DNA of 64,000 bases from Nitrososphaeria archaeon (GCA_963760525.1 CAVXDT010000009.1:15611-79610), one strand, 5' to 3'; shown: positions 20,230 through 34,533, numbered from the stretch's first letter. Notes: a model not told the origin generated them from the letters alone. Translations and numbers: made by a program.

Positions 20230-21600
20230 TCAGGCTACGTATATGACCATTAGATCCATTAGATTCGTTCCTGTGTCATATGTGTAGACAGCATCTTTTA
20301 TTCTTCTAAAAACGGAAGATGAATTATGCTTTCTCAGTTCTTCCCCGATGTTTATGCCTTTTCTCTCTGCTAGTTCAACCGTTTTACCATCCACTATTGC
20401 TCCAGCTATGTTAGTCGGCCCGTCGGTACCATCTGTAGCTATTGAAGCGATGAAGATTCTGTCGAAACCAGATATCTCCTGTGCAGCTGAAAGTACCATT
20501 TCTTGGTTTCTACCTCCTTCACCATGGTTTTCTCCCTGCATTGAGACAGTTGTCTCTCCCCCTGCAATCAAGACGCATGGTGGTTCAAAAGGCGTGCCAA
20601 CATTATGAATCGTCTTTGCTATGCCTGCGAGCATCCTTCCGACATCCTTCGCCTCACCTTCGACCCCAGTTGAGAACACATGCGCCTTCATGCCCAGTTT
20701 TGCCGCTTCTTCTCTGGCTTGCGAGCACATCATAATATTGTCCGCAATAACAATATTATGCACTTTAATCCTTCTTCTATCGTAATCCTTCTGTTTTGGA
20801 GTCTCTCTCTCAAAGCTATCTTCTTCAAGATAAGATTTCACACTTGATGGAATACGCTCTATCAAGTTGTATTGGTTAAGAACTCTGATTGCGTCCTCAA
20901 AAGTCGAGTTGTCCGGGACTGTTGGCCCCCAAGGCAACCCTCCGATTTCGTCAACTGATATCAGGCCAATCACAGTGGCCTCATCAGCTAATATGGCAAG
21001 CTTACCTCTTCCTAAACTGGACAGATGATTTCTCACAATGTTCATTTTTTCAATTGGTACACCTGACTTCAATAGTAGATCATAGGTTTCTTCAAATTCC
21101 ATACGAGTAACTCCTTCTGGGGGGGATGATGCTAAAGCTGTCCAACCTCCGCTTACACAGACTATGAGTAGGTCCTTCTTGCTTACTTTTCCAGCTATTC
21201 TGATTACCTCTTCTGCTCCTCGAACACTCTCACGGTCAGGTATAGGATGTCCTGCGAAGATTGTTGGCATCTTCCTGGTTTTTAGTTGACACCCTTTCTT
21301 TTCGATAACAACCCCTTCGCTAATTCTCTCTCCAAGAGCATCCTCCAAGGCAAGAGCCATAAAGCTTGAGTTCTTCCCGCCAGCTATGACAAAGATGTGT
21401 TCAACGTCATCTAGTTTTATTTCAATATCATTTATCTTTAGAGTATTATCTTCTACTCTCAAAATCCTCTTGATAATGGTATAATAGTTCATTTCTCTGA
21501 TGGTCTGCTCGATTATTTTGATGATAATTCCACGTTCCTCCCTAAGATCTTTGGATAAGAGTTCTTCCTTGTTCTTGATTATCAAAACCTGTGCCCTCAC
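20230..21600 (-). CDS. Glycerate 2-kinase family protein (class II, MOFRL), copy 1
   Basis: AGHPIPD, VSGG, NIVRNHLS, GGETTV, GGRNQE, TDGTDGPT, TGTNLMD. Confidence 0.9.
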   Translation of the reverse strand: MRAQVLIIKNKEELLSKDLREERGIIIKIIEQTIREMNYYTIIKRILRVEDNTLKINDIEIKLDDVEHIFVIAGGKNSSFMALALEDALGERISEGVVIEKKGCQLKTRKMPTIFAGHPIPDRESVRGAEEVIRIAGKVSKKDLLIVCVSGGWTALASSPPEGVTRMEFEETYDLLLKSGVPIEKMNIVRNHLSSLGRGKLAILADEATVIGLISVDEIGGLPWGPTVPDNSTFEDAIRVLNQYNLIERIPSSVKSYLEEDSFERETPKQKDYDRRRIKVHNIVIADNIMMCSQAREEAAKLGMKAHVFSTGVEGEAKDVGRMLAGIAKTIHNVGTPFEPPCVLIAGGETTVSMQGENHGEGGRNQEMVLSAAQEISGFDRIFIASIATDGTDGPTNIAGAIVDGKTVELAERKGINIGEELRKHNSSSVFRRIKDAVYTYDTGTNLMDLMVIYVA

Positions 21601-21610
21601 TTAATCCATT

Positions 21611-22894
21611 TCATAGGGGGATTCTATAGTTTCTTCCAGCGTATCTTGCCATCTTACCTAATTCTTCCTCTGTTCTTATTAGCTGATTGAATTGTGCAAC
21701 TCTCTCGCTTCTCGTCGGTGCTCCGTTCTTTATTTGACCCGCGTTTATTGCTACTGTCAAGTCAGCAAGCCATGTGTCTTCGGTTTGCGCTGACCTTTCC
21801 GAAACCAGGACGCTATAACCGTTCCTGTTCGCGTATGAAGCTGTTTCCAATGCCTCGCTTAAAGTTCCTATCTGGTTCACCTTAAGGAGCACGGTGTTTG
21901 CTGCTTTCATCTGAACTCCTTTGATTAGACGACTGATATTTGAAACGAAGAAATCATCTCCCACTATTTGAATGCCTAGCCTCCTCGTGATTTCCGCGAA
22001 CCCTTCAAAATCATCCTCGTAAAGCGGGTCCTCTATTGACTTTAGAGGGTATGTCTTAACGAGCTCTTCATATATGTCCATCAGTTGCTCTCTCGTGACC
22101 TCTTTCCCTCTATATCTATAGTTCCCAGTTTTCTCGTGATACATGTGCGTTGAGGCTGCGTCCATCGCAAGTATGAAATCGTTTCCATATCCTTCTTCAT
22201 CGATTGCTGCCAGTATTATTTCATAAGCTTCTCCAGGATCGCTTATTCCAGGGGGTGAAAACGATCCCTCATCACCAGTGTTCAAAGAGTACTTTCCATA
22301 TTTCTTAGAAAGCATTTTTCCTAAGGTATGATATACTTCACAACCCATTTGCATGGCTTCTGCGAAAGTCTTTGCTCCCACTGGCATTACATTGAATTCC
22401 TGAAAATCGAGGTCAGTGGCAGCAAGTTTCCCGCCGCAAATATAAAGAAACATGGGAACAGGTAGGACATAGGAATCTGTTCCGCCAATATATCGATAGA
22501 CAGGCAGTGAAAGAGCACTTGCAGCTGCTTTTGCTACTGCCCAAGATGTTGCGACCAAAGCATTTCCTCCCAGCTTTGATTTGTCGCTTGTGCCATCTTT
22601 TTCAATCATAGCATAGTCTATTTCTCTTTGATGTCGAACATCATATCCTTTGATTAAATTTGCTATGACTTCATTCACCATCCCTACTGCTTTTCGAACT
22701 CCTAACCCCCCATACCTTTCACCTCCATCTCTGAACTCAAAAGCCTCATATCTTCCCCTTGAGCGCCCAGCAGGCGTGTCCGCTCGCCCCAGAAAACCTC
22801 CTTCAGTGATAACATCAACTTCTATAGTAGGATCGCCTCTGCAATCCAAGATTTCCCTAGCCTTAACCTCCCCTATTCTAAAATTGTTTTCCAT
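21611..22894 (-). CDS. Enolase homologue with altered active site, copy 1
   Basis: REILDCRGDPTIEV, LGGNA, QEF, GDEG, IEDP, GDD, LLKVNQIG; SERSAQTED in place of SHRSGETED. Confidence 0.88.
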   Translation of the reverse strand: MENNFRIGEVKAREILDCRGDPTIEVDVITEGGFLGRADTPAGRSRGRYEAFEFRDGGERYGGLGVRKAVGMVNEVIANLIKGYDVRHQREIDYAMIEKDGTSDKSKLGGNALVATSWAVAKAAASALSLPVYRYIGGTDSYVLPVPMFLYICGGKLAATDLDFQEFNVMPVGAKTFAEAMQMGCEVYHTLGKMLSKKYGKYSLNTGDEGSFSPPGISDPGEAYEIILAAIDEEGYGNDFILAMDAASTHMYHEKTGNYRYRGKEVTREQLMDIYEELVKTYPLKSIEDPLYEDDFEGFAEITRRLGIQIVGDDFFVSNISRLIKGVQMKAANTVLLKVNQIGTLSEALETASYANRNGYSVLVSERSAQTEDTWLADLTVAINAGQIKNGAPTRSERVAQFNQLIRTEEELGKMARYAGRNYRIPL

Positions 22895-23090
22895 TATTGA
22901 TCTTTCTCATTTTACGGTTCCAATTGTATCATTATATAAATCTTAGTCGCGCTGAAAGAAGACTTCCGAAAGAACAGTGAAATGAAGTCTTTATGTGTTC
23001 ATTCTTTTATGACTCGACCCAACATCCTCAACGTGCTAAGGTATTGATCTTTAGTAATCTTACCTTTTTTCTCCTCTGCTATTTGCTTGC

Positions 23091-24299
23091 CTAATCCAGC
23101 TTGTCATATAGTAGATCAGCAACTGTCATTGCCATAATCTTCGCAGGAATAATATATGCCATTTCTTTATCTTTCAATTCGAAGTCCTTTGTGTGAACAC
23201 CTCCGGTGAACCCCCCTATCATAGGATGTAGAACTGGCATGATCATGCTGACATCTCCCATATCTGTTGACCATGCTCTATGTACTGGTTCCTCCATGAC
23301 TTGTGCAAACTGGGATGCGTTATTCGAAAAGATTTCAGCTAGTCGTATGCTTGGAGACAGGGGCATGAAATTGCAGAATTGACTGATTTTAACTTTGGCT
23401 CCTATGGCCTGCGCTCCAGAAACCAAGGCTTTGTTTATTCTACTATCAGTTTCTGTTAACGCTTCAAGAGTGCGTGCTTTGACATATGATGAGACTTCTA
23501 CTTGAGAGGGGACAATGTTCTCACTTTCGCCCCCTTTTGTTATTATAGGAGTGAACCTAATGTAGTCCTCATCTCTAAATGTTTCCCTTAGAGCGTTTAC
23601 AGCCTGTAACCCTAACAGAGCGGCATTCAAAGCGTTTATTCCATCCCACGGAGCCCCAGTATAATGTGCTGCCTTACCCAAGTACCTAATCGACTTGATA
23701 ATTGATGCATTTGTCGAAAGTCTAGGCCAGATTTTCCTTTCTGTCGTGTTTCCTTCCGCATGACACATCATTGCTATATCTATATCATCGAATCCTCCAA
23801 GCCTAATCAATTCCTGTTTTCCAGCCATAAACTCCAGTTTTCCTTCATCAACAAGTTTTCTTCGATATTCGTAATCTGAACCTTCTTCTGCAGGTGCTCC
23901 AAATAATGTAACAGATCCATTTAGTTCGTCAATGACACCTGAATCGACGAGACCAAATCCAGCTCCTATAACTTCTGTAATCTGTGCAAAGTGACCGCAT
24001 GCGTGTGCAACTGTCCCCACTGCCATGGGATGTAAAGGGCACACTACTGCGTCCAGTTCGCCAACTATTGAAACGTTAATTTGTCCAGTTCCAACTTTTC
24101 CTCTTATTCCTGTTATTGCTAGGTCGTCTTTGATTTCCAAGTCTAATTCCTCAAATTTCTTCTTCACCTTGCTTGAAGTTCTGAATTCCTTAAAACCTAG
24201 TTCGGGATTCCTTTGGATATCATCTGCAAAAGACGACAACTCCTGACTTCTCTCATCAATCGCTTCACAGACCCTTTTCTTCAGCTGGCTTAACGACAT
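23091..24299 (-). CDS. M20D amidohydrolase (Acy1L2/AbgB-like)
   Basis: NPELGFKE, ELDA, HACGH, PAEE, GKAAH..APWDGINAL, STDMGDVS. Confidence 0.9.
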   Translation of the reverse strand: MSLSQLKKRVCEAIDERSQELSSFADDIQRNPELGFKEFRTSSKVKKKFEELDLEIKDDLAITGIRGKVGTGQINVSIVGELDAVVCPLHPMAVGTVAHACGHFAQITEVIGAGFGLVDSGVIDELNGSVTLFGAPAEEGSDYEYRRKLVDEGKLEFMAGKQELIRLGGFDDIDIAMMCHAEGNTTERKIWPRLSTNASIIKSIRYLGKAAHYTGAPWDGINALNAALLGLQAVNALRETFRDEDYIRFTPIITKGGESENIVPSQVEVSSYVKARTLEALTETDSRINKALVSGAQAIGAKVKISQFCNFMPLSPSIRLAEIFSNNASQFAQVMEEPVHRAWSTDMGDVSMIMPVLHPMIGGFTGGVHTKDFELKDKEMAYIIPAKIMAMTVADLLYDKLD

Positions 24300-24333
24300 T
24301 TCTCAAATCTCTTGATATCAACAAACAAAATAT

Positions 24334-24984
24334 TCATATAAAAGACTTGCCATCGAATTTCCTGAGAAAGTCTTTTGTTTTTATGAGTTCACAGCAAATC
24401 CTCTTCAGTTCTTCGATACCCTTGTCATATATACCGGAGATCGCATCTTCTATCACTACAAGTCTGAAATCTCTTTCACTAGCTTCATATATCGATGTTC
24501 TTGGACAATTTGGAAAATTACACCCTGTGAAAACTAAAGTTGATACGCCCTTTTCTTCGAGAAAATCCTCCAACTGAGTTGCATAAAATGCACCCCATCT
24601 AGATTTATAAATTACAAACTCGTTTAGCCCAATCTTCTGAATTTCGCCCTTCAACAGTTTTTCAGCATCTAATCTAGCATCATTAGGTCTTAGCTCCCTA
24701 ACTAATTCAAAACCTTTGGAATTTGGGGGAACTATTCTTAACCCTTCCTCAATTTTCTTTTTTCTGCACATGTCAGCATTTGAACCATTTTCCTTGTAGA
24801 TTCTAACCACATGTACTATCAGTTTACTCCTTTCTCTAAATTTATTCAAAATCGCAACTATGTTTGGAATAATTTCATATGTTCCCTCAATCTCATAAGG
24901 TCCCATTCTTGATGAGAAATCATTTTGCATATCAATAGTCAGTAATCCAATATTCTCATAATTTGGTTCAGTATATAGATCCAT
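24334..24984 (-). CDS. Isochorismatase-family cysteine hydrolase
   Basis: IDMQNDF, KSRWGAFY, GCNFPNCPRTS (Asp-Lys-Cys triad). Confidence 0.9.
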   Translation of the reverse strand: MDLYTEPNYENIGLLTIDMQNDFSSRMGPYEIEGTYEIIPNIVAILNKFRERSKLIVHVVRIYKENGSNADMCRKKKIEEGLRIVPPNSKGFELVRELRPNDARLDAEKLLKGEIQKIGLNEFVIYKSRWGAFYATQLEDFLEEKGVSTLVFTGCNFPNCPRTSIYEASERDFRLVVIEDAISGIYDKGIEELKRICCELIKTKDFLRKFDGKSFI

Positions 24985-25103
24985 TATGATTCAATTAGGA
25001 TTATCTTGATTAAAATCTTTCTATAATTTCTTTGGGAGAGATTCAGAACCCAAAACCAAGAACAATATATCATGTCTAATATCGTATCTAGTATTGTATC
25101 TGA

Positions 25104-26639
25104 TTAAGCTATTTTTTTCAGCCAACCCATTGTGAGCTTGACACTTTCTTTCCAACCCTTGTAGAGATGATCGCTTTTCTCTTTAGACCATTTTGGCTCG
25201 AAAACTCTGTCCACAGCCCAAAGTTTTCGTAACTCATCCAAATCTTTCCAAAATCCAACTGCAATACCAGCAGCATATGCCGCACCCAAGGAGGTAGTTT
25301 CAGTAAACCTGGGTCTTACGACATTGCATCCTAAGATAGACGCTTGGAGCTGCATTAGATAGTTGTTAACACTAGCCCCACCGTCAACCTTCAAGGCTTC
25401 TAGTTTCATATTAGAGTCATTAACCATGGCTTCAAATACATCTCGCGTTTGCCAACATATCGATTCAAGAGTTGCGTGTACAAGATGCTCCCTTTTTATG
25501 AAACTGGTCAATCCGCAGATCACTCCTCGGGCGTTAGAGTCCAAAAAGGAGCGTAGAGTCCACTGAATGCTGGAACAAAGTATATTCCTCCAGATCCTTC
25601 CTCACTTATCGATTCAGCTATCTTTTCTGTTTCAGAGGACGATTTGATCAGCTTGAGATTGTCCCGAAGCCATTGTATAGCAGAGCCAGCTATAGCAATA
25701 GAACCTTCTAAAGCATAGTAGCATCGGTTTCTTTCTAGACTAAACGCTACAGTTGTGAGAAGCCTATTCCTTGAGAATCTTGGTTCCTCTTCCTATAGTA
25801 GCTAGTATAAAACATCCCGTTCCATACGTATTCTTGACCTCTCCCTCTTTGAAACATGCTTGCCCAACTAGAGCTGCTTGCTGGTCACCTAGGTCTCCGC
25901 AAACTGGAATCGCTGCTCCAAGAATGCCATCAACTTGTGTATACCCGTATATTTCCTTGTCAGAGGAAGGTCTGAGTTTAGGTAGAATACTTTCTGGAAT
26001 CCCTAGAAGATCCAGCATTTCTTTATCCCAAACTAACTTTCTAATGTTCATTAACATTGTGCGAGAACCGTTTGTGTAGTCCGTTACGTGAGCCCCCTTT
26101 TTTGGTCCTCCAGTAAGCCACCATATTAACCATGAATCAATATTTCCAAAGTATACCATCTCCTTTTCAGCTTTTTCACGAATTCCTGGCACATTATCTA
26201 AAATCCATTTTATTTTAGGACCCGAGAAATAAGTAGAAGAAAATAAGCCTGTACGCTTTTGGATAAAATCATCGTGTTCCCGTAAACTATCGCATATATC
26301 CTTTGTTCGAGTGCACTGCCAGACAATGGCATTGTAATAAGGTCGACCTGTTTTAGGATTCCAAAGTATAGTAGTTTCACGTTGATTGGTGACGCCTATT
26401 GCTGCGATTTCGTTTGGCTGGATTCTAGTTTCTTTTAATGCTGCATTTATGACATTGCAGGTTTTTTCAATTATCTCAATAGGATCGTGTTCTACCCATC
26501 CCGGTCTTGGGTAGGTCTGCTGATGTTCAGAGTACTTCCAGGCAACCCTATTTCCGTCATGGTCAATAATCAAACATTTCGTTCCAGTAGTCCCTTGGTC
26601 AATAGTCAAACAGTATCGTTTATCCGTCATGATTACCAT
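25104..26639 (-). CDS. glpK: Glycerol kinase (two single-base frameshifts near 25790 and 25542)
   Basis: [42 protein letters not shown]; uncalled middle frame reads [34 protein letters not shown]; C-terminal [12 protein letters not shown]. Confidence 0.92.
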
Positions 26640-26762
26640 TTAGCATCTGACTTGAGCTTAAAAGTAGTATGTTTTCTTATCTTTACTGATAAGTGAAGTG
26701 TCAATTTCAACATTCCATAATATTTTTATATAAATTGGAAACTAGATTAAGCTGATTCACAT

Positions 26763-28229
26763 TTGAGAATGTTAAACATGGAGACACTAGTTTCGCATGG
26801 CAATACAATCGGAAGAAAGGCAGTGGCTGAAATCCTTGAAGCTGGACTTCTAGCAGCAGATCCATATCGCAATACTAGGAAATTGATTAGGTTACAAAAT
26901 AATAGTTTGATAGTAGGTTGTAAGGAGTACGAACCGCCTGGGGACCCCAGCAGTGGGGATGCAGTTTTTGACCTATCCAAAGTTGGAAGCATATACGTTG
27001 TGGGAGCAGCAAAAGGAGTTCAAGGAGCAGCAAAAGCAATTGAAGATATCCTGCAAGACAAATTGACTGGAGGCCATGTCATAGCGAAAAAAGGCGATCC
27101 GCTTATTCTGAAAAAAATTGGAGTTACCGAAGGCGCTCATCCTGTGCCAGATGAGAACTGTGTGGAAGGATGTAAGAAGATTGTTCAAATCGCCGAAAAA
27201 GCAAAGGAAGGTGATCTTGTGTTCACAATTAGTGGAAATGGCGGTTCTTCGCTGCTTACTCTACCTGTGCCTGGTGTAAGCATTGAAGATGTTAGGCAAT
27301 TAACGTATAGAATGCAGATCGAATTGGGTGTACCTACTGAAGACTTGAATGTTGTCCGAAATCACTTGGATGTTCTGAAAGTTGGCAGGCTTTCAAAGCT
27401 AATATATCCTGCAACCACGATACATATCCTTCTATGGGATCCTGGAGATCCTTTACCTTCTACAAGTGGTGCTTCTGGCTATGAACGGCTATTATCGAAC
27501 AATCTTTGGCTTCACGCTCTCCCTGATCATACAACCTTTACTGACGCTGTTCATGTGTTAAAGAAATGGAAAATGTGGGATGAAGTTCCAAAGTCTATTA
27601 GATCACACATTGAGGCTGCTGATCCCAAATTTGAGACGCCTAAGAAAGAAGATTTTGACAACATGACGTTCCGTATTTTCGGCATATTGCCTAGGAGGGG
27701 AGCCATAGAGGAAGCTAGAAGAAAATCAGAAGCTTTGGGTTTCAATCCAGTTATTCTAACTGAATGGATGCAAGCTGAAGCAAAAGACGCAGGTAGGGTC
27801 ATAGCCCAGATAGCCAAGAATGTTGACAATGCAGGTAGACCGTTTAAACCACCATGTGTTTTAATAACTACAGGAGAACTTCTTGTATCAGTTGGAAATG
27901 AACGAGGTATAGGTGGCAGAAATCAAGAGTTTATCCTTTCTGCAGCACTGGAGATAAAGGGAAGCCAGAACATTGTGATGGGAGCGGTGGACACAGATGG
28001 AACAGATGGCCCCGGTCAACAGTTCGTCGAAGGACAGGAAAAAGTACCATGCTTATCTGGAGCAATAGTTGACGGATTCACTTTTGGAGAAGCCACCAGG
28101 ATGGAACTTGACATAATAAAGGAACTAAAGGCTCACAATTCCTCAATACCTTTGATTAAGTTAGGCGATGGCGTTATCGCAACACAAGGAGTAAGCCTTG
28201 GTGACCTTGGAATAACGCTTATACTTTAA
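26763..28229 (+). CDS. Glycerate 2-kinase family protein (class II, MOFRL), copy 2
   Basis: GAAKG, GAHPVPD, NGGSSLL, NVVRNHL, GGRNQE, TDGTDGP. Confidence 0.88.
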   Translation: MRMLNMETLVSHGNTIGRKAVAEILEAGLLAADPYRNTRKLIRLQNNSLIVGCKEYEPPGDPSSGDAVFDLSKVGSIYVVGAAKGVQGAAKAIEDILQDKLTGGHVIAKKGDPLILKKIGVTEGAHPVPDENCVEGCKKIVQIAEKAKEGDLVFTISGNGGSSLLTLPVPGVSIEDVRQLTYRMQIELGVPTEDLNVVRNHLDVLKVGRLSKLIYPATTIHILLWDPGDPLPSTSGASGYERLLSNNLWLHALPDHTTFTDAVHVLKKWKMWDEVPKSIRSHIEAADPKFETPKKEDFDNMTFRIFGILPRRGAIEEARRKSEALGFNPVILTEWMQAEAKDAGRVIAQIAKNVDNAGRPFKPPCVLITTGELLVSVGNERGIGGRNQEFILSAALEIKGSQNIVMGAVDTDGTDGPGQQFVEGQEKVPCLSGAIVDGFTFGEATRMELDIIKELKAHNSSIPLIKLGDGVIATQGVSLGDLGITLIL

Positions 28230-28253
28230 CAATTCTGAGGTAGATGTGGTTAA

Positions 28254-29528
28254 ATGAGCTCTAGAATAAAATCAATACACGCAAGACAGATACTTTCGAT
28301 AAGAGGGCATCCTGGTATAGAAACAACTGTAACAACAGAAGATGGTTCGACCGGAACAGCAGTCGTCACCGCTGGAGTTTCCATCGGAGAACATGAGGTA
28401 TTCTTTGTTAACGATGGTGGGAAAAAATGGAATGGACTTGGACAACAGAAAGCAGTTGACACGGTCAACAATATTATCGGACCTACTGTTGTCGGTTTGG
28501 ATGCAACTAACCAAAGCTTGATTGACGAAGCAATGCTCAAGTTGGATGGTACGCCAAACAAAACAAGATTGGGAGGAAATTCCATAGCAAGCGTTTCAGC
28601 AGCTACACTAAAGGCTGCATCAAAAGGTCTTATGATTCCATTATATCAGCATATTGGTGGCGTAAATGCCCGAGTGATTCCAGTTCCAGGGGTAATCTCT
28701 TTCGTAGGTGGTGAGAGATATGGTAGTGGCCAGAGAGCAGGAGACAAGCCAAGCTATTCTTTCATGGCCTACGGTTTCAAATGTTTTTCTGAAGCTTCCT
28801 ATGCCTGCTGGGAACTCAAAAATGAATTTCATCAGACATTAAGGAAGAGGCTTGATATGAGGGTTCCGACGTTTAATTTTGGCTTTGCGCTGGTTCCACC
28901 TGGCAAAGTCGACCACGACCGTGAACTGTGGGAAATGATGGTTGAAACCATTGACAATCTCGGATATAAGAATAGGGTTGGAATACAAGTAGATGTTGCT
29001 GCAGGAACATACTTTGACAAGAAGAAGAACGCGTTTGTAGGACTCTTTTCCAGAGAAGATAAGACAAAAGAGGACATGATAGAGCTCTACAAAGAAGTTG
29101 TGAAGAACTACCCATTCCTAATTATTGAAGACCCACTGGACGAAAACGATTACGAGGGGCATGCTATTGTAACTAAGGAGCTTGGGATTCAGATAGTTGG
29201 CGACGACCTTTTCACTACTAACATCGAACGGGTAAGGAAAGGCGTAGAAGTGAAAGCATGCAATACCATACTTCTAAAAGTTAACCAGATAGGCTCTATA
29301 ACTGAAGCTTTTGATATGGTAGAATTTGCACACAAACACAACTATGCAGTAATGCCTTGCAGCAGTAGAGGCGAAGGATCTGATATAGCTGACTATTCTG
29401 TTGGACTTGGAACTGGGCAGATGAGAGAAGGAGGATTTGATGATACTGCTAACAGAGCGCTGCAAATCGAAGAAGAACTTGGCAGCAGATCTAAGTTCCT
29501 AGGAAAAGCAGCGTACAAATCCTCTTAG
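28254..29528 (+). CDS. Highly divergent enolase-fold protein, copy 2
   Basis: DGTPNKTRLGGN, DVAA, IEDP, GDDLFTTN, LLKVNQIG retained; QEF, GDEGG, SHRS and QIKTG not conserved. Confidence 0.85.
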   Translation: MSSRIKSIHARQILSIRGHPGIETTVTTEDGSTGTAVVTAGVSIGEHEVFFVNDGGKKWNGLGQQKAVDTVNNIIGPTVVGLDATNQSLIDEAMLKLDGTPNKTRLGGNSIASVSAATLKAASKGLMIPLYQHIGGVNARVIPVPGVISFVGGERYGSGQRAGDKPSYSFMAYGFKCFSEASYACWELKNEFHQTLRKRLDMRVPTFNFGFALVPPGKVDHDRELWEMMVETIDNLGYKNRVGIQVDVAAGTYFDKKKNAFVGLFSREDKTKEDMIELYKEVVKNYPFLIIEDPLDENDYEGHAIVTKELGIQIVGDDLFTTNIERVRKGVEVKACNTILLKVNQIGSITEAFDMVEFAHKHNYAVMPCSSRGEGSDIADYSVGLGTGQMREGGFDDTANRALQIEEELGSRSKFLGKAAYKSS

Positions 29529-29624: not shown

Positions 29625-31055
29625 CTAGTGTACTACTTGATCCAATAGACGACCTTCTCTGTCTAAGAGCTGTATTTGTAAAGGCATCTGACCCCACGCA
29701 TGAGTAGCACAGCTTAAGCAAGGATCAAAAGCTCTCACAACCGCTTCTACCCTATTGAGCATTCCTTCTTCTATCTTCTTTCCTTTGACAAACTTCTGAG
29801 CCACTTGTGTCACGGCCTTATTGTAGGCTAGATTGTTGTGCTCAGTCGCAATTATCAAATTGCAATAGCCTATCCTTCCTTCTCTGTCAACTTTATAGTG
29901 GTGAATTAGCGTTCCTCTAGGAGCTTCGGCCACACCTACTCCTTCGCTGCTATTGACAGACGCGTTTGCCCGAACTTTATCTCCTAATATATTAGGGTCT
30001 TGTAGCAACAGTTTTGTCTTCTCCAAGCAGAAGAGTATTTCTATTAGTCGTGCGTAATGATAGTGGAAAGTGCTTAATACAATACCGTTCTTGCCAAGTT
30101 TTTTGAACTCCTTCAGCTCTTCATCTGCTAATGGGGTACCACAATGCGAACAAACGTTTAACCTGGCAAGTGGACCTACCCTGTATATCCCTTTTGTATA
30201 ACCTAGCGGTAGATAGTAGGGGAATTTCATATAGGACCAGGGTTCAACCGCTTCTCCAATGTATTCATAGTACTTTGAAGGATCAAGCCTATCTGCAATA
30301 ATTTTGCCCTCTGAACTCACTATTCTAATGGTTCCATCGTAGTGTTCGAGACCGCCATCAGATGTTACGAGACCCAAGAAGTAGGTTGGAAAGTTGCCAA
30401 AACTTTCTATTTCATCCTTGAAATTGGTGAACATATTCTTGAAAGTTGAAATTGCCTTGAGAGTCGTATCCATAGCCTCAGGTAAACCCTCAGAAATCTT
30501 GTCCAGCTTTTCCTTAGAAGCAGGCACCTTTACACCGCCTGGAACAGTCCAGTCGCTTGCATGCACCCTCTTGCCTCCTAACGATTCTATGATATTTTGA
30601 CCGAATTGCCTCAGTCTTATGCCCTGTCTAGCGAGTTCAGGATATTTTTCAATTAGACCAAATACGTTTCTCTTCGCTGGATCTGAATCAAATCCTAAGA
30701 GGAAGTCTGGGGAAGAAAGATGGAAGAAGCTGAGTGCATGCGATTGAATCAACTGTCCGTTATGCATAAGACGACGTAAGAGCTCAGCTGTTCTAGGAAT
30801 CTTCACAGCCAGGATTTCATCACATGCTTTAGCTGAGGCGAGCATATGGCTTACTGGACAGATACCACAAGTTCTAGAAGTAATGTTTGGCATTTCATAG
30901 AATGGACGACCTTCACAGAACTTCTCAAATCCTCTGAAATCAGTAACATGAAATCTTGCCTCTCTCACGGACCCATCGTCTTCGAGAAAGACAGTTACCT
31001 TCGCGTGCCCTTCTATCCTTGTTACGGGATTTATTATTAAGACTTTTTCTGTCAT
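29625..31055 (-). CDS. hoxH: Group 3d [NiFe]-hydrogenase large subunit
   Basis: [21 protein letters not shown]1 [11 protein letters not shown]2 [15 protein letters not shown]. Confidence 0.93.
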
Positions 31056-31067
31056 TCTTCTTCACTC

Positions 31068-31601
31068 TTAACCATACTTTGTCAGACCTTCCATATTCGG
31101 AACTCTCCCGGAAAGGAGTTCGGTCACCACATAGTTGATGAGATCTGCTGAGGGCGGACATCCTGGAACAAAATAGTCTACTTTAACGATTTCATGCAGT
31201 GGGTGAACATATTTGAGCAGTTTTGGAACGTCATCGGGAATCTGTTGCTGGATTGTAGAGTTGTCGATGAACTCCTTTTGAAGAACAGCATTCACACTGT
31301 CATTGATAGCATTTCTCAGGGCGGTTACATTGCCTGTGACAGCACAATCGCCTAGTGAAACAAGTACTTTCGTCTTAATTCGAGCGCGTTTCAGCAGCTC
31401 CAATTGCTCATGGTTTGCAACAGCACCTTCAATGAAAGTCACATCAACACCTTCTGGAAATTCTTTAACATCTACGATAGGGCTATAGACCAGTTCAATC
31501 TTATCAGCCAAGTTAATTAGGCGTTCATCTTGGTCAAGGAAAGACATGTGACACCCTGAACAACCACTTAGCCAGATTGTGGCCACCTTTACTTTTGCCA
31601 A
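31068..31601 (-). CDS. hoxY: [NiFe]-hydrogenase small subunit
   Basis: WLSGCSGCHMSFLD, GDCAVTGNV, PGCPP; short HoxY size; TTG start at 31601 preferred over 31634. Confidence 0.92.
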   Translation of the reverse strand: MAKVKVATIWLSGCSGCHMSFLDQDERLINLADKIELVYSPIVDVKEFPEGVDVTFIEGAVANHEQLELLKRARIKTKVLVSLGDCAVTGNVTALRNAINDSVNAVLQKEFIDNSTIQQQIPDDVPKLLKYVHPLHEIVKVDYFVPGCPPSADLINYVVTELLSGRVPNMEGLTKYG

Positions 31602-31608
31602 TTCCTTC

Positions 31609-32334
31609 TCACCTTCTCCTCCTTTCCATGACAAATGCTGTGAAATCCTTGTTCTTCACATCTTCCAAGGGTTTACCTCTGATGTATATTGCCCCCACTG
31701 GGCAAACTACTGAACATTTCTGACATGACGTGCAAGAGGGAGAATTGCCCCAGGTTTCGTCAAGGTCCATAATAATCTGGGAGCCCTTTCCCCTATTCTT
31801 AAGGTCAAGAGTGTGAACGCCTTCTATTTCATCACATACTCTAACGCAGCGAGTACAAATGATGCACCTGTTTCGGTCTATAGCGAATCTCTCATGGGAA
31901 CAGTCAACTTCTAGAGCAGTCCATTCTCGGTTGAACCTAACATGGTCCACTCCCAGCATCTTTGCGAGATCCTGAAGTTCACAGCTGCCATTGGCTACGC
32001 AGACCGCGCAGATATGAGTCCTCTCAGATAGGATCAGTTCCAGAAGCATTTTGCGATAGTTCGTAAGCTTGTCGGAGCTTGTTATCACATATAGTCCGTT
32101 AGCTGCTGGCGTCGTGCAAGCAGGGAAGAGTTTTGACGAACCTTTGATTTCAACGAGGCATAAACGACATCCTCCCATTGTGGAAAGACCTTCCATGTAG
32201 CATAGCGTAGGAATATATATGCTATTTTCTTTGGCAACCTTGAGTATTGTATCATCCGCAGCAGCCAAAACTTCTTTTCCATCTATTATGAATTTGATTG
32301 TCTTAGCACTCAAGTTCCTATTCAACCTCGTCAA
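31609..32334 (-). CDS. hoxU: Diaphorase Fe-S subunit
   Basis: IPTLC, GGCRLC, HICAVCVANGSCELQ, CIICTRCVRVC, CTSCQKC..VCP. Confidence 0.92.
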   Translation of the reverse strand: MTRLNRNLSAKTIKFIIDGKEVLAAADDTILKVAKENSIYIPTLCYMEGLSTMGGCRLCLVEIKGSSKLFPACTTPAANGLYVITSSDKLTNYRKMLLELILSERTHICAVCVANGSCELQDLAKMLGVDHVRFNREWTALEVDCSHERFAIDRNRCIICTRCVRVCDEIEGVHTLDLKNRGKGSQIIMDLDETWGNSPSCTSCQKCSVVCPVGAIYIRGKPLEDVKNKDFTAFVMERRRR

Positions 32335-33997
32335 GTAAGGTTTTATCCAACTCCTTCACTCCTTTGAAACACTTGCCAGCTGGACATTTATGTTCAGTGA
32401 TATGGGAATCATATTCGTCCCTGAAGTAGCGTATCGTAGATAAAACTGGATTTGGAGCAGTTTGACCGAGTCCACATAAACTGGCATCTCTTGTAATATA
32501 ACCTAGACTTTCTAGTAAATCTAAATCTTCAGTCTTTCCTCTGCCATTTGTAATCCTTTGAAGAATCTCATCCGTTTTAACAAGACCAACACGGCACGGG
32601 ACACATTTCCCACAGGACTCGTCAACACAGAATTCAGTGAAGAACTTTGCTGTGTCAACCATACAGGATGTGTCGTCTATAACAACTATGCCACCTGATC
32701 CCATTATTGCCCCTGCTTTGGTCAGAGAATCATAGTCTATAGGTAGGTCAAGACAGCTCTCAGGGAGACAACCGCCCGAAGGACCGCCTACTAGAACAGC
32801 TTTGAACTTTCTACCTTTGGCAACACCACCACCTATACTAAACACGATATCCCTTAATGTTATTCCCATCGGAACTTCTATTAACCCAGGATTGTTGACT
32901 TTCCCAGTCAGTGAAAAACACTTTGTGCCCTTACAGGTTTCAACTCCAATTTCAGAGAACCATGTAGAACCGTTCAGCATGATTATTGGTATGTTTGCCA
33001 AAGTCTCAACATTGTTTATCAAAGTAGGTTTCCCAAATAACCCTGACGTAGCAGGATATGGCGGACGTGGACGTGGCATAGCTCTACGCCCTTCTATGGA
33101 CGCAAGAATACCCATTTCCTCACCAGCAATAAAAGCACCAGCTCCCAGTCTCAGGTCGATGTCAAATGACAAATTTGAACCGAAGACATTCTTTCCGAGA
33201 AAGCCCATAGACCTTGCTTGCTGTATAGCCTTTCTCAGAGTCTGTACAGCTAATGGGTATTCAGCACGAATGTATATGTAACCTGTTTCAGCTCCAATAG
33301 CGTATGCTGCTATGAGCATGCCTTCGAGGATAGCATGCGGATCAGCTTCAGCAAGAGTTCTATTTGCAAATACTCCCGGGTCACCTTCATCTAGATTCGC
33401 TACAATATATTTTGGTGAACCTTGTGCCTTTTCCACAAAATCCCATTTCTGCCCTGTTACAAAACCTGCTCCTCCCCGACCTCTAAGACCACTAGCTCGA
33501 ACTTCATCTATAACCTGCCTTGGGCTCATTTGTGTAACCACTTTAAGGAGAGCATAATACCCTTGCATAGCTATGTAATCTTCAATTCTGAGAGGATCAA
33601 TTTTGCCCGCGTTCCTCATAACTACCCTATGTTGCTTCTGGAAGAAACCAGGGTTGGTGTAAAGCAAGTCTTTCACAGGTCTATCGTTAACGATATGTTC
33701 ACGAACTATTTCGCGAGCTGACTCAGGATTAACATTTTGATACATATGATCTCCTGGGTCAACGATCACTACTGGACCTACATAGCAGGTTCCCACACAA
33801 CCTGTCCTAGCAACCTTACACATGTCCTTAACGTTGAATTCTTTAACAGCGTCTTCGAAGGCCTTCAATATCCTCAGTGCTCCCAAGGACATGCAACCGC
33901 TTGAGCAGCAAACACTAATCCTATACTTGTATGCATTCCTGTCCTCGAGCTCTTTTTCTCTCATTTCCTTAAGAAGAGTTTCAAAAGGCATGCTCAT
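32318..33997 (-). CDS. hoxF: NADH-binding diaphorase subunit (NuoF-like)
   Basis: N-terminal thioredoxin-like 2Fe-2S, SGLRGRGGAGF, DEGDPG, GAGAFIAGEE, ESCGKCVPCR. Confidence 0.93.
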   Translation of the reverse strand: MSMPFETLLKEMREKELEDRNAYKYRISVCCSSGCMSLGALRILKAFEDAVKEFNVKDMCKVARTGCVGTCYVGPVVIVDPGDHMYQNVNPESAREIVREHIVNDRPVKDLLYTNPGFFQKQHRVVMRNAGKIDPLRIEDYIAMQGYYALLKVVTQMSPRQVIDEVRASGLRGRGGAGFVTGQKWDFVEKAQGSPKYIVANLDEGDPGVFANRTLAEADPHAILEGMLIAAYAIGAETGYIYIRAEYPLAVQTLRKAIQQARSMGFLGKNVFGSNLSFDIDLRLGAGAFIAGEEMGILASIEGRRAMPRPRPPYPATSGLFGKPTLINNVETLANIPIIMLNGSTWFSEIGVETCKGTKCFSLTGKVNNPGLIEVPMGITLRDIVFSIGGGVAKGRKFKAVLVGGPSGGCLPESCLDLPIDYDSLTKAGAIMGSGGIVVIDDTSCMVDTAKFFTEFCVDESCGKCVPCRVGLVKTDEILQRITNGRGKTEDLDLLESLGYITRDASLCGLGQTAPNPVLSTIRYFRDEYDSHITEHKCPAGKCFKGVKELDKTLLDEVE

Positions 33998-34533
33998 CGC
34001 ACCTGCTCATTTGATTTCAACTGATCCAGTACTTGTTTTATTTTGTCTATCACAGCCTCTTTTGTCGCCTTTGAAATAGTCTGATCGTCGACTGTAACAT
34101 TGGGAGCCATAGCACAAGCACCTATACATCTTGTGATAAACAGGGATAGCTTTCCATCAGCGCTTGTTTCACCACGTTTTATGTTAAATTCCTGTTCAGC
34201 CGACGTTATTATATCTTCTACCCCTTTTACGTAACAAGCAGTACCTAGGCAAAAAGTTGCTGCATGCTCTCCAGGTTTCTTCAACCTAAACAAGTTGTAG
34301 AACGTTGCCACACCAAGAACGTGGCTCGGAGGAATATGCAGAGATCTAGCGACATGTATCAACAATCGCCTATCAAGATATCCGAAGATTTCTTGGGTGC
34401 TGTGAAGAATCTCAAGAAGAGAGTCCCTTGAATATTGATGTTGTTTCATAATATTGTCCAACAGCAACATACGTTTGTCATCCTGCAAAATTGGTTTTGA
34501 GCTATTTTCAGACAATATAGACCGCGCTCTCAA
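33994..34533 (-). CDS. hoxE: NuoE-like 2Fe-2S subunit
   Basis: GVATFY, CLGTACYVKG, RCIGACAMAP. Confidence 0.9.
   Translation of the reverse strand: MRARSILSENSSKPILQDDKRMLLLDNIMKQHQYSRDSLLEILHSTQEIFGYLDRRLLIHVARSLHIPPSHVLGVATFYNLFRLKKPGEHAATFCLGTACYVKGVEDIITSAEQEFNIKRGETSADGKLSLFITRCIGACAMAPNVTVDDQTISKATKEAVIDKIKQVLDQLKSNEQVR

Follow-up and report, generated by a model that had tools for sequence, protein, structure and literature searches.

Paired MOFRL kinase and variant enolase genes in a Nitrososphaeria archaeon, a probable two-step route into phosphoenolpyruvate

The window analysed here is a 64,000-nucleotide stretch (G000:C9:15611-79610) of the 1.22-Mb metagenome-assembled genome (MAG) of a Nitrososphaeria archaeon, 68.5% complete, in which open reading frames were called mechanically. 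It holds two gene pairs, each consisting of a kinase with DUF4147 and MOFRL domains and an enolase whose catalytic residues are altered. The MAG encodes archaeal genes, including those for class I LysRS, CDC48, ribosomal protein L18e, PAC2 and HTH_10 regulators, and the closest homologues of the window proteins carry the source names Bathyarchaeia or Nitrososphaeria. We suggest that the two pairs probably form an unstudied two-step route into phosphoenolpyruvate (PEP).

The two pairs and their altered active sites

The first pair lies on the minus strand, with eno1 (21611-22894, 427 aa) upstream of gk1 (20230-21600, 456 aa), and the second on the plus strand, with gk2 (26763-28229, 488 aa) upstream of eno2 (28254-29528, 424 aa). 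As the first-pass annotation had stated, the members of each pair are less than 25 bp apart: 10 bp separate the stop of eno1 from the start of gk1, and 24 bp the stop of gk2 from the start of eno2. Its descriptions of the kinases as dissimilar and of both enolases as non-canonical also hold, the kinases being 33% identical to one another and the changes at catalytic positions being evident in alignments. The two enolases, each with Enolase_N and Enolase_C domains, share 38% identity and represent two variant types, which we call T1 (eno1) and T2 (eno2).

The Pfam DUF4147 and MOFRL domains were matched with 181 and 113.8 bits by gk1, and with 144.5 and 61.6 bits by gk2. This is the architecture of class II (MOFRL) glycerate 2-kinase (EC 2.7.1.165), which includes PH0495, TM1585 and the T. 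tenax enzyme dealt with in PMC2063504. It is also found in gk3 (C10:36051-37517), the last of the three MOFRL genes in the MAG and the one with no enolase partner. The nearest solved structures for both gk1 and gk2 are those of the glycerate 2-kinase family, PH0495 of P. horikoshii (PDB 1x3l, matched with 297 bits by gk1 and 215 bits by gk2) and TM1585 of T. maritima (PDB 2b8n). The reaction type is probably that of the class II enzymes, namely ATP-dependent 2-O-phosphorylation of a 2-hydroxy acid. What sets gk1 and gk2 apart is that they score far below the equivalog cut-offs for glycerate 2-kinase and fall into clades defined by their enolase partner. With the models NF041176 (cut-off 550 bits) and NF040791 (cut-off 670 bits), respectively, the scores were 212 and 135 bits for gk1, 115 and 86 bits for gk2, and 131 and 111 bits for gk3. 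The gk3 gene itself is flanked by an aldehyde:ferredoxin oxidoreductase (AOR) gene and by a gene for a Staygreen-family protein (Pfam PF12638, 159.8 bits; region G000:C10:35494-39571, L011:6495-10572), the latter being unexpected for an archaeon.

The sequences of eno1 and eno2 were aligned to the M. jannaschii enolase 2pa6 and 92 other enolases, with residue numbering and catalytic roles (metal ligands, lid Ser39, base Lys345) which we take to be those of yeast enolase. Both score above the cut-off of 300 bits for the canonical enolase model TIGR01060 (512.8 bits for eno1 and 330.1 bits for eno2), and their matches to Pfam Enolase_N and Enolase_C are strong. They share with canonical enolase (EC 4.2.1.11) the two-domain fold, Ser39, the metal ligands D246, E295 and D320, and Lys345, and these residues are present in at least 90% of the T1 and T2 rows of the alignment. 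Lys345 is missing in three divergent second copies (L060_2640, L063_10302 and L065_10305), one of which is also altered at Ser39 and D320.

The differences from canonical enolase are clade-wide, extending over 18 T1 rows and 44 T2 rows. The histidines at positions 373 and 159 are kept in all 28 canonical rows and replaced in both window proteins. In eno1, which matches 2pa6 with 506 bits, the changes H159L and H373E are seen, the motif SHRSGETED reads SERSAQTED, and the lid is Arg-rich, with PAGRSRG in place of PSGASTG (full lid PAGRSRGRYEA); the T1 signature SLQEEDEDKERSK is common to 13 rows. The protein otherwise retains Q167, E168, the general acid E211, R374, S375 and K396. The T2 protein eno2 has been rebuilt more extensively: both E168 and E211 are absent, and the changes are Q167P, E168S, H159R, H373S and K396R, with R374-S375 swapped to S-R. 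The GDEGG loop which bears E211 is replaced in T2 by sequence that varies even within the clade. A new conserved loop rich in Gly, Arg and Lys, RYGSGQRAGDKPS, is present in eno2, with RYGGGxRxGxKPS in place of GGxHAG...QEF. At position 396, where the Lys of canonical enolase stabilises the carboxylate or enolate, eno1 keeps K; the eno2 type has R in the aligned column, which may or may not take over this role, and the RxER motif that comes next is lost. Many homologues of eno2 occur in Bathyarchaeia and Chloroflexota, with identities of 60-95%, and variant enolases of archaea and bacteria remain 60-70% identical across the two domains.

Since the lid serine, the metal triad and Lys345 are retained, the variants are expected to bind a 2-phospho-carboxylate and to remove its C2 proton, as in the canonical mechanism. 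One could suppose instead that they are not lyases at all, being racemases or epimerases of a 2-phospho acid or else dead proteins with a binding or moonlighting role in regulation. The loss of acid-side residues in the eno2 type would fit this, the enolase superfamily includes racemases and epimerases (PMC6946804), and genes for LarA-type 2-hydroxyacid racemases recur near the pairs, suggesting that stereo-inversion matters in these operons. Yet for a 1,1-proton transfer a second base would have to face Lys345, on the very side where residues have been lost in eno2, so epimerisation by the partner enolase, which the first-pass annotation had offered as an alternative to dehydration, is unlikely for this type. 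The product of a racemase would also need a further conserved enzyme, and none is conserved. Lastly, the retention of the catalytic residues in nearly all rows, together with the identity kept across domains, argues for a working active site. We regard a racemase or a dead protein as very improbable.

Pairing, co-diversification and the other enolases

A pattern-based scan using one genome per species gave 79 loci, and a residue-signature census was made of 94 enolases of at least 380 aa, in which an enolase was scored as paired if it lay within 600 bp of a MOFRL gene. By this measure 16 of 18 T1 enolases and 34 of 44 T2 enolases were paired, as against none of 28 canonical enolases, counts which overstate the independence of the observations because many rows are kin. 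A seventeenth T1 enolase is separated from its kinase by a GntR gene, and two more T2 enolases lie in eno2-eno2'-kinase operons. Counted by locus, a MOFRL kinase was present at 30 of 36 eno2-like loci, at 11 of 12 eno1-like loci lacking the SHRSGE motif, and at none of 26 loci with the canonical motif. The pairing is far beyond chance. Hosts of the pairs include Bathyarchaeia, Chloroflexota, Bacillota, Spirochaetota, Atribacterota and Actinomycetota, so that conservation elsewhere, on which the first-pass annotation had made its proposal depend, is found for both types across archaea and several bacterial phyla.

Within the window's own family, gk1 and eno1 are adjacent in all six loci fetched. 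For gk2 and eno2 this is so in four of six, where gk2 orthologues, 67-69% identical, lie directly upstream of eno2 orthologues; at the fifth (L029) the contig ends at the start of eno2, and the sixth is a second, kinase-less eno2 copy in G006. This solitary copy (L026, G006:C5, 9343-10635) is 71% identical to eno2; its neighbours are a flavodoxin-like gene and one for an aldo-keto reductase that contains a 4Fe-4S domain. An unbiased census by coordinates of 10 genomes of the family found 38 MOFRL genes, 18 of them within ∼1.5 kb of a variant enolase (enoB-like genes, described below, included) and none adjoining the enolase of the ribosomal gene cluster. In nine genomes of sister families, where one contig carries both the single canonical enolase and the MOFRL gene or genes, a distance of more than 100 kb separates them.

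The trees of the two partners correspond. In the enolase tree (FastTree), T1 and T2 each form one clade, with support of 98 and 100, respectively. The kinase tree (quick IQ-TREE) contains a T1-partnered clade, comprising 16 paired kinases and four not scored as paired, and a T2-partnered clade of 34 paired kinases and three others, each with 99% support; gk1 falls in the former and gk2 in the latter. As both clades mix archaea and bacteria, it follows that the pair moves as a unit.

In some proteins the two partners are joined. The DUF4147 and MOFRL domains occur in the same polypeptide in 6 of 107 long relatives of eno2, of which five (the protein clusters P0127, P0129, P0131, P0137 and P0176) are clean fusions of 904-917 aa with the kinase N-terminal and the enolase C-terminal. 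Their enolase parts show a further altered set of residues (QE to ED, E211 to I, V or T, and H373 to L). The sixth, P0227, was rejected as an enolase-kinase fusion, its linker resembling an out-of-frame translation. Many of the long proteins P0132-P0225 are eukaryotic, several from dinoflagellates, and combine enolase with GAPDH, PGK, PGI, PGM or TPI domains; these are unrelated to the kinase-enolase pairing.

The fourth residue signature of the census, which we call TB (H373A/S), is represented by four rows. It never adjoins a MOFRL gene there, and in two of the four rows (L102 and L109) a kinase of the APH fold lies directly upstream. The APH-coupled and the fused enzymes follow the same principle as the window's pairs, position 373 being replaced and a kinase lying directly upstream or being fused, but they have a different kinase fold or a single polypeptide, and different residue sets; they are likewise uncharacterised. 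We group such systems in a working class, which is not a curated family, as kinase-coupled variant enolase modules, defined by replacement of position 373, a small-molecule kinase adjacent or fused, and another enolase in the genome. Both pairs of the window show all three features, as do modules in other genomes.

The other enolase copies are as follows. The window's MAG has four enolase-family genes above the TIGR01060 cut-off. One, at C12:72851-74095, lies in a ribosomal cluster (S4-S11-RpoD-L18e-L13-S9 ... enolase-S2-Memo-mevalonate kinase) and, despite its long branch, keeps all 13 signature residues. Ribosomal context alone would be an unsafe proof that an enolase is canonical, because the in-context copy can be the diverged one, as is argued for Methanococci and Thermococci in PMC4390880. 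We take this gene as canonical because it has the full residue set and because sister families of the class have this type as their only enolase; all 10 genomes of the window's own family have it as well. The separate canonical enolase that the first-pass annotation asked to be confirmed elsewhere in the genome is therefore present.

The remaining copy, enoB (G000:C3:67222-68553, L009:9223-10554), is one of the four TB rows. It has an altered E211 loop and H373A, lies between HTH_10 and HTH_20 regulators, lacks an adjacent kinase, and groups with the APH-coupled type (support 83, long branches). An enoB-like gene adjoins a MOFRL kinase in the family genomes G003, G007 and G009. Those of G007 (G007:C5:72897-74132) and G009 (G009:C19:7367-8605) have one in-frame stop each (TAA and TGA, respectively) and may be pseudogenes or reflect sequencing errors.

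Coexistence with another enolase is general, being found in 40 of 43 variant-bearing genomes. A second, clearly higher-scoring enolase is present in 26 of 28 T2-bearing genomes, of which 23 reach at least 580 bits, compared with ∼270-330 bits for T2; in the archaeal genomes G041, G042 and G045 the second enolase scores 404-447 bits. Among T1- or TB-bearing genomes, 14 of 15 have a second match, which in bacterial genomes is the higher-scoring copy. Several genomes have 5-11 enolase-family matches, with 11 in one Bacillota genome. Such large expansions were seen in G052 (the genome of L050/L054), G048 and G064: a 2.6-Mb Christensenellaceae MAG has 11 matches, and an Atribacterota MAG and an Anaerolineales MAG have 9 each, some of the matches being fragments.

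Gene contexts and the neighbours in the window

Apart from the kinase, no gene regularly accompanies the enolase; the next commonest neighbour family occurs in 6 of 34 loci. That no third gene is conserved points to a common metabolite as the product, PEP being the simplest case.

T2 modules sit in sugar and sugar-acid operons, both in relatives of the window's organism and in bacteria. In the window's family the genes upstream encode a D-2-hydroxyacid dehydrogenase, an FGGY kinase, a DeoC/LacD-type aldolase, a zinc alcohol dehydrogenase, a further FGGY kinase and a major facilitator superfamily (MFS) transporter, and gk2-eno2 is followed by a LarA-type racemase and a thiamine pyrophosphate (TPP) enzyme. 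Clostridia have Ldh_2, 2-keto-3-deoxy-6-phosphogluconate (KDPG) aldolase, a short-chain dehydrogenase/reductase and an aldo-keto reductase before the pair, and an aldehyde dehydrogenase, a PfkB kinase, an isomerase and a class II aldolase after it. The order in a Chloroflexi MAG is isomerase, PfkB, class II aldolase and then gk2-eno2-gk2. A spirochaete and a Eubacteriaceae MAG have two MR_MLE genes, a 2-hydroxyacid dehydrogenase, a GD_AH dehydratase, a FAH-family hydrolase and a tripartite ATP-independent periplasmic (TRAP) transporter ahead of eno2-eno2'-gk2, and a Bacillota MAG has a TRAP transporter and a 2-hydroxyacid dehydrogenase ahead of eno2-gk2.

The contexts of T1 mostly concern nitrogen compounds. 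They comprise class V or class III aminotransferases, hydrolases of the M20, creatininase and Amidohydro_3 types, two ornithine carbamoyltransferase-like genes with a carbamate-kinase-like gene of the amino-acid-kinase family, dihydroorotate/dihydropyrimidine-dehydrogenase-like genes, and a D-serine-dehydratase-like enzyme dependent on pyridoxal phosphate. LarA-type racemases, AOR and a GlcDF-like oxidase also occur, and in Actinomycetota there are GntR regulators with ATP-binding cassette (ABC) importers. The idea of a sugar-acid pathway, put forward in the first-pass annotation for both pairs, fits the gene contexts of the second pair but not, for the most part, those of the first. In relatives of the family (L030-L032, L033 and L035) a proA gene (560 bits over cut-off) follows eno1-gk1, with proC divergent, and in G002 (L033, G002:C10, 5779-11788) proB also precedes eno1-gk1, so that the pair lies inside a proline-biosynthesis set; the arrangement is missing in the window. 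We considered proB, proA and proC as functional partners of eno1-gk1 and judged their presence to be synteny at the level of the family, as it was not seen outside it.

Between the two pairs of the window lie three genes on the minus strand which the pairs had been noted to flank. An M20-type amidohydrolase gene (23091-24299) ends 197 bp upstream of eno1, with which it is possibly co-transcribed; it scores 151.2 bits with TIGR01891 (cut-off 153.75) and matches Pfam M20 weakly. A further 35 bp upstream is an isochorismatase-family (cysteine) hydrolase gene (24334-24984; Pfam Isochorismatase, 88.3 bits), with weak NCBIfam matches to biuret amidohydrolase and RutB. The third gene, glpK for glycerol kinase (25104-26639), is divergent from gk2. 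All three genes are indeed there, but glpK is broken. With the GlpK model NF000756 the scores are 411.8 bits for its N-terminal part and 193.4 bits for its C-terminal part; there are in-frame stops, and the middle third is in another frame, which implies two frameshifts, one near 25775 and one near 25545, where the coding strand has a T5 run. In contigs of close relatives from the sediment runs X1, X2 and X3 a single additional base follows position 25540 and would bring that part back into frame, and the break is either an assembly error or a strain-specific pseudogene. In the same contigs an additional G follows position 23100, three codons short of the stop of the M20 gene, and the C-terminus of the M20 protein may be mis-read in the window.

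No homologues of these three genes were found in the loci of 14 relatives, and on that ground we rejected them as parts of the module. In one other T1 locus (L084) an M20 gene lies ∼1.6 kb upstream, and the membership of the M20 and cysteine hydrolase genes is uncertain. Directly after eno2 there is a complete hoxE-F-U-Y-H-like cluster for a bidirectional [NiFe] hydrogenase on the minus strand (29625-34533), in which the matches of HoxE, HoxU, the NuoF-like protein and the small and large subunits to named models are at or below cut-off.

Proposed chemistry and its meaning

We lean, with modest confidence, towards a reading in which each pair phosphorylates a glycerate-like 2-hydroxy acid and then eliminates the group on C3 to give PEP, the two pairs having different substrates and neither of these being plain D-glycerate. 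What the data show are the gene pairs, their altered residues, a pairing that is conserved and exclusive, kinase and enolase clades that match, fusions, and a canonical enolase alongside; phosphorylation at O2, the elimination chemistry, PEP as the product and a substrate other than D-glycerate are inferred. In the first step, the MOFRL kinase would use ATP to phosphorylate the 2-hydroxyl of the small acid. The variant enolase would then hold the 2-phospho acid on two Mg2+ ions by means of lid Ser39, D246, E295 and D320, Lys345 would take the C2 proton, and the group on C3 would be expelled. The product would be PEP or a close analogue, with no need of a further dedicated enzyme. The part that has been rebuilt is the side of the active site that faces the leaving group, at H373 in both enzymes and also at E168, E211 and K396 in eno2. 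The D-glycerate and 2-phosphoglycerate (2-PG) of central metabolism would be left to the ribosomal-cluster enolase. It is the rebuilt pocket, together with the separate kinase clade of each type, that points to two different substrates other than D-glycerate, and a partner that is strict, co-evolving and sometimes fused is understandable if the kinase makes a private metabolite.

The strong rival is that both pairs simply turn D-glycerate into 2-PG and then PEP, as operon-private isozymes at the end of sugar-acid, glyoxylate/ureide or serine catabolism. The residue changes would then tune kinetics, metal use or regulation or, in eno2, relocate the acid catalyst. The rival is strong because the gene contexts are those of pathways classically ending in glycerate. 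The neighbours of T2 (MR_MLE and GD_AH dehydratases, KDPG, HpcH and class I/II aldolases, aldehyde dehydrogenase, D-2-hydroxyacid dehydrogenase, and TRAP, ABC and MFS uptake systems) match such routes: a glucarate/galactarate-like gene set is present in L063/L065/L069, KDPG aldolase with aldehyde dehydrogenase in L055-L059, and a TRAP transporter and D-2-hydroxyacid dehydrogenase with the pair in L077. T1 is found beside class V aminotransferase, hydroxypyruvate/glyoxylate-reductase-like dehydrogenase, AOR and M20/ureide-type genes. The lower branches of the non-phosphorylative Entner-Doudoroff, glucarate/galactarate and glyoxylate/serine pathways follow the same kinase-then-enolase logic and have similar upstream genes; PMC11775122 and PMC2063504 describe the gud/gar pathway as ending with glycerate kinase, which gives 2-PG.

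Several further observations weigh against our preferred reading. Apart from being ∼60% identical to a solved archaeal enolase, eno1 keeps E168, E211, K345, K396 and the metal ligands, the residues usually held essential for dehydration of 2-phosphoglycerate, and for both reasons it may well still act on 2-PG. The scores of both enolases above the TIGR01060 cut-off and the structures nearest to both kinases point the same way. The unpaired gk3, in a glyceraldehyde-to-glycerate context, falls inside the T2-partnered kinase clade. No canonical copy was found in G044 and G060 (T2) or in G078 (T1/TB set), all three of which are MAGs. All loci derive from a single motif-based scan of species representatives, with its many related rows, and the kinases were sampled via their enolase neighbours, with characterised glycerate kinases absent from the tree.

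Against the D-glycerate route, on the other hand, ordinary 2-PG would go to the resident enolase, leaving no reason for the two genes to stay linked; in fact the variants are strictly linked to the kinase and canonical enolases not at all, the partners co-diversify, and fusions exist. In the described pathways the last step is done by the housekeeping enolase, and the parts of PMC11775122 and PMC2063504 available to us mention no dedicated enolase gene with the kinase, whereas here a rebuilt enolase is the only constant partner of the kinase. The eno2 type lacks E168, E211 and H373, and its E211 loop varies within the clade. It is also hard to reconcile a single substrate with the numbers of genes in small genomes, which reach 6 MOFRL genes and 4-11 enolase-family matches. 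We consider plain D-glycerate as the substrate of both pairs to be possible but on balance somewhat doubtful.

If the preferred reading, with substrates other than D-glycerate, is right, the acids which could give PEP directly might include L-glycerate, (S)-sulfolactate, isoserine and similar acids of the form X-CH2-CH(OH)-COO-, though this is speculation. Equally speculatively, the loss of the acid catalyst and the gain of the Gly/Arg/Lys loop in eno2 would fit the departure of an anionic group or of one that requires no protonation, while the third Glu in eno1, at position 373, would suit a cationic one. A bolder and, we think, unlikely version is that the variants are phosphorylate-then-eliminate lyases that expel groups other than hydroxide from C3 of 2-phospho-C3 acids, directly yielding PEP. 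The gk2-eno2 pair could then be a sulfolactate kinase and an enzyme converting 2-phospho-3-sulfolactate to PEP and sulfite, with the new loop acting like an anion hole; (S)-3-sulfolactate has the same spatial arrangement as D-glycerate. For eno1, with its three-Glu pocket and nitrogen-rich contexts, the substrate could be isoserine 2-phosphate, giving PEP and ammonia, or the mirror-image L-glycerate 2-phosphate. There is functional analogy, and only that, in two other enzymes. Methylaspartate ammonia-lyase, a member of the enolase superfamily outside the enolase subgroup, carries out beta-elimination of ammonia, and the phosphosulfolactate synthase ComA, whose fold is unrelated to that of enolase, makes 2-phospho-3-sulfolactate from PEP and sulfite; both show that Mg-stabilised carboxylate enolates can lose or gain ammonia or sulfite at C3.

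In the annotated T2 operons, markers of sulfoglycolysis beside the modules were limited to distant matches, and no sulfoquinovosidase, sulfite exporter or sulfite reductase was seen. The neighbouring isomerase scores 97-144 bits with SftI (cut-off 700) and the neighbouring Ldh_2 272 bits with L-sulfolactate dehydrogenase (cut-off 500). The aldehyde dehydrogenase matches the SSADH subfamily best, below cut-off, and the TPP enzyme matches PRK06154 and not Xsc. If the sulfolactate route were nevertheless true, it would be a new desulfonation step closing sulfoglycolysis in anaerobes, and the window would hold two such elimination routes side by side.

A full-text literature search, with subscription-only literature outside its scope, found no description of kinase-coupled or acid-less enolases. 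What it found instead was PMC2063504 on plain glycerate kinase, PMC4390880 on archaeal enolase paralogues of the ribosomal superoperon, PMC6946804 on 'enolase paralogs' of the MR/MLE type in SAR202, and PMC11775122 on the gud/gar pathway.

The enolase subgroup is generally treated as having a single function, and in databases all of these proteins are called 'enolase' or 'phosphopyruvate hydratase'. Should the pairs prove to be plain glycerate-to-PEP isozymes, the finding would be ordinary, although enzymologists would still be interested in a working enolase that has lost Glu211. If the variants act on another substrate than 2-phosphoglycerate, a catabolic step that is widespread among anaerobes of sediment and gut, and whose two genes lend themselves to direct testing in vitro, would have gone unrecognised, and many genome-scale models would mis-assign these genes.

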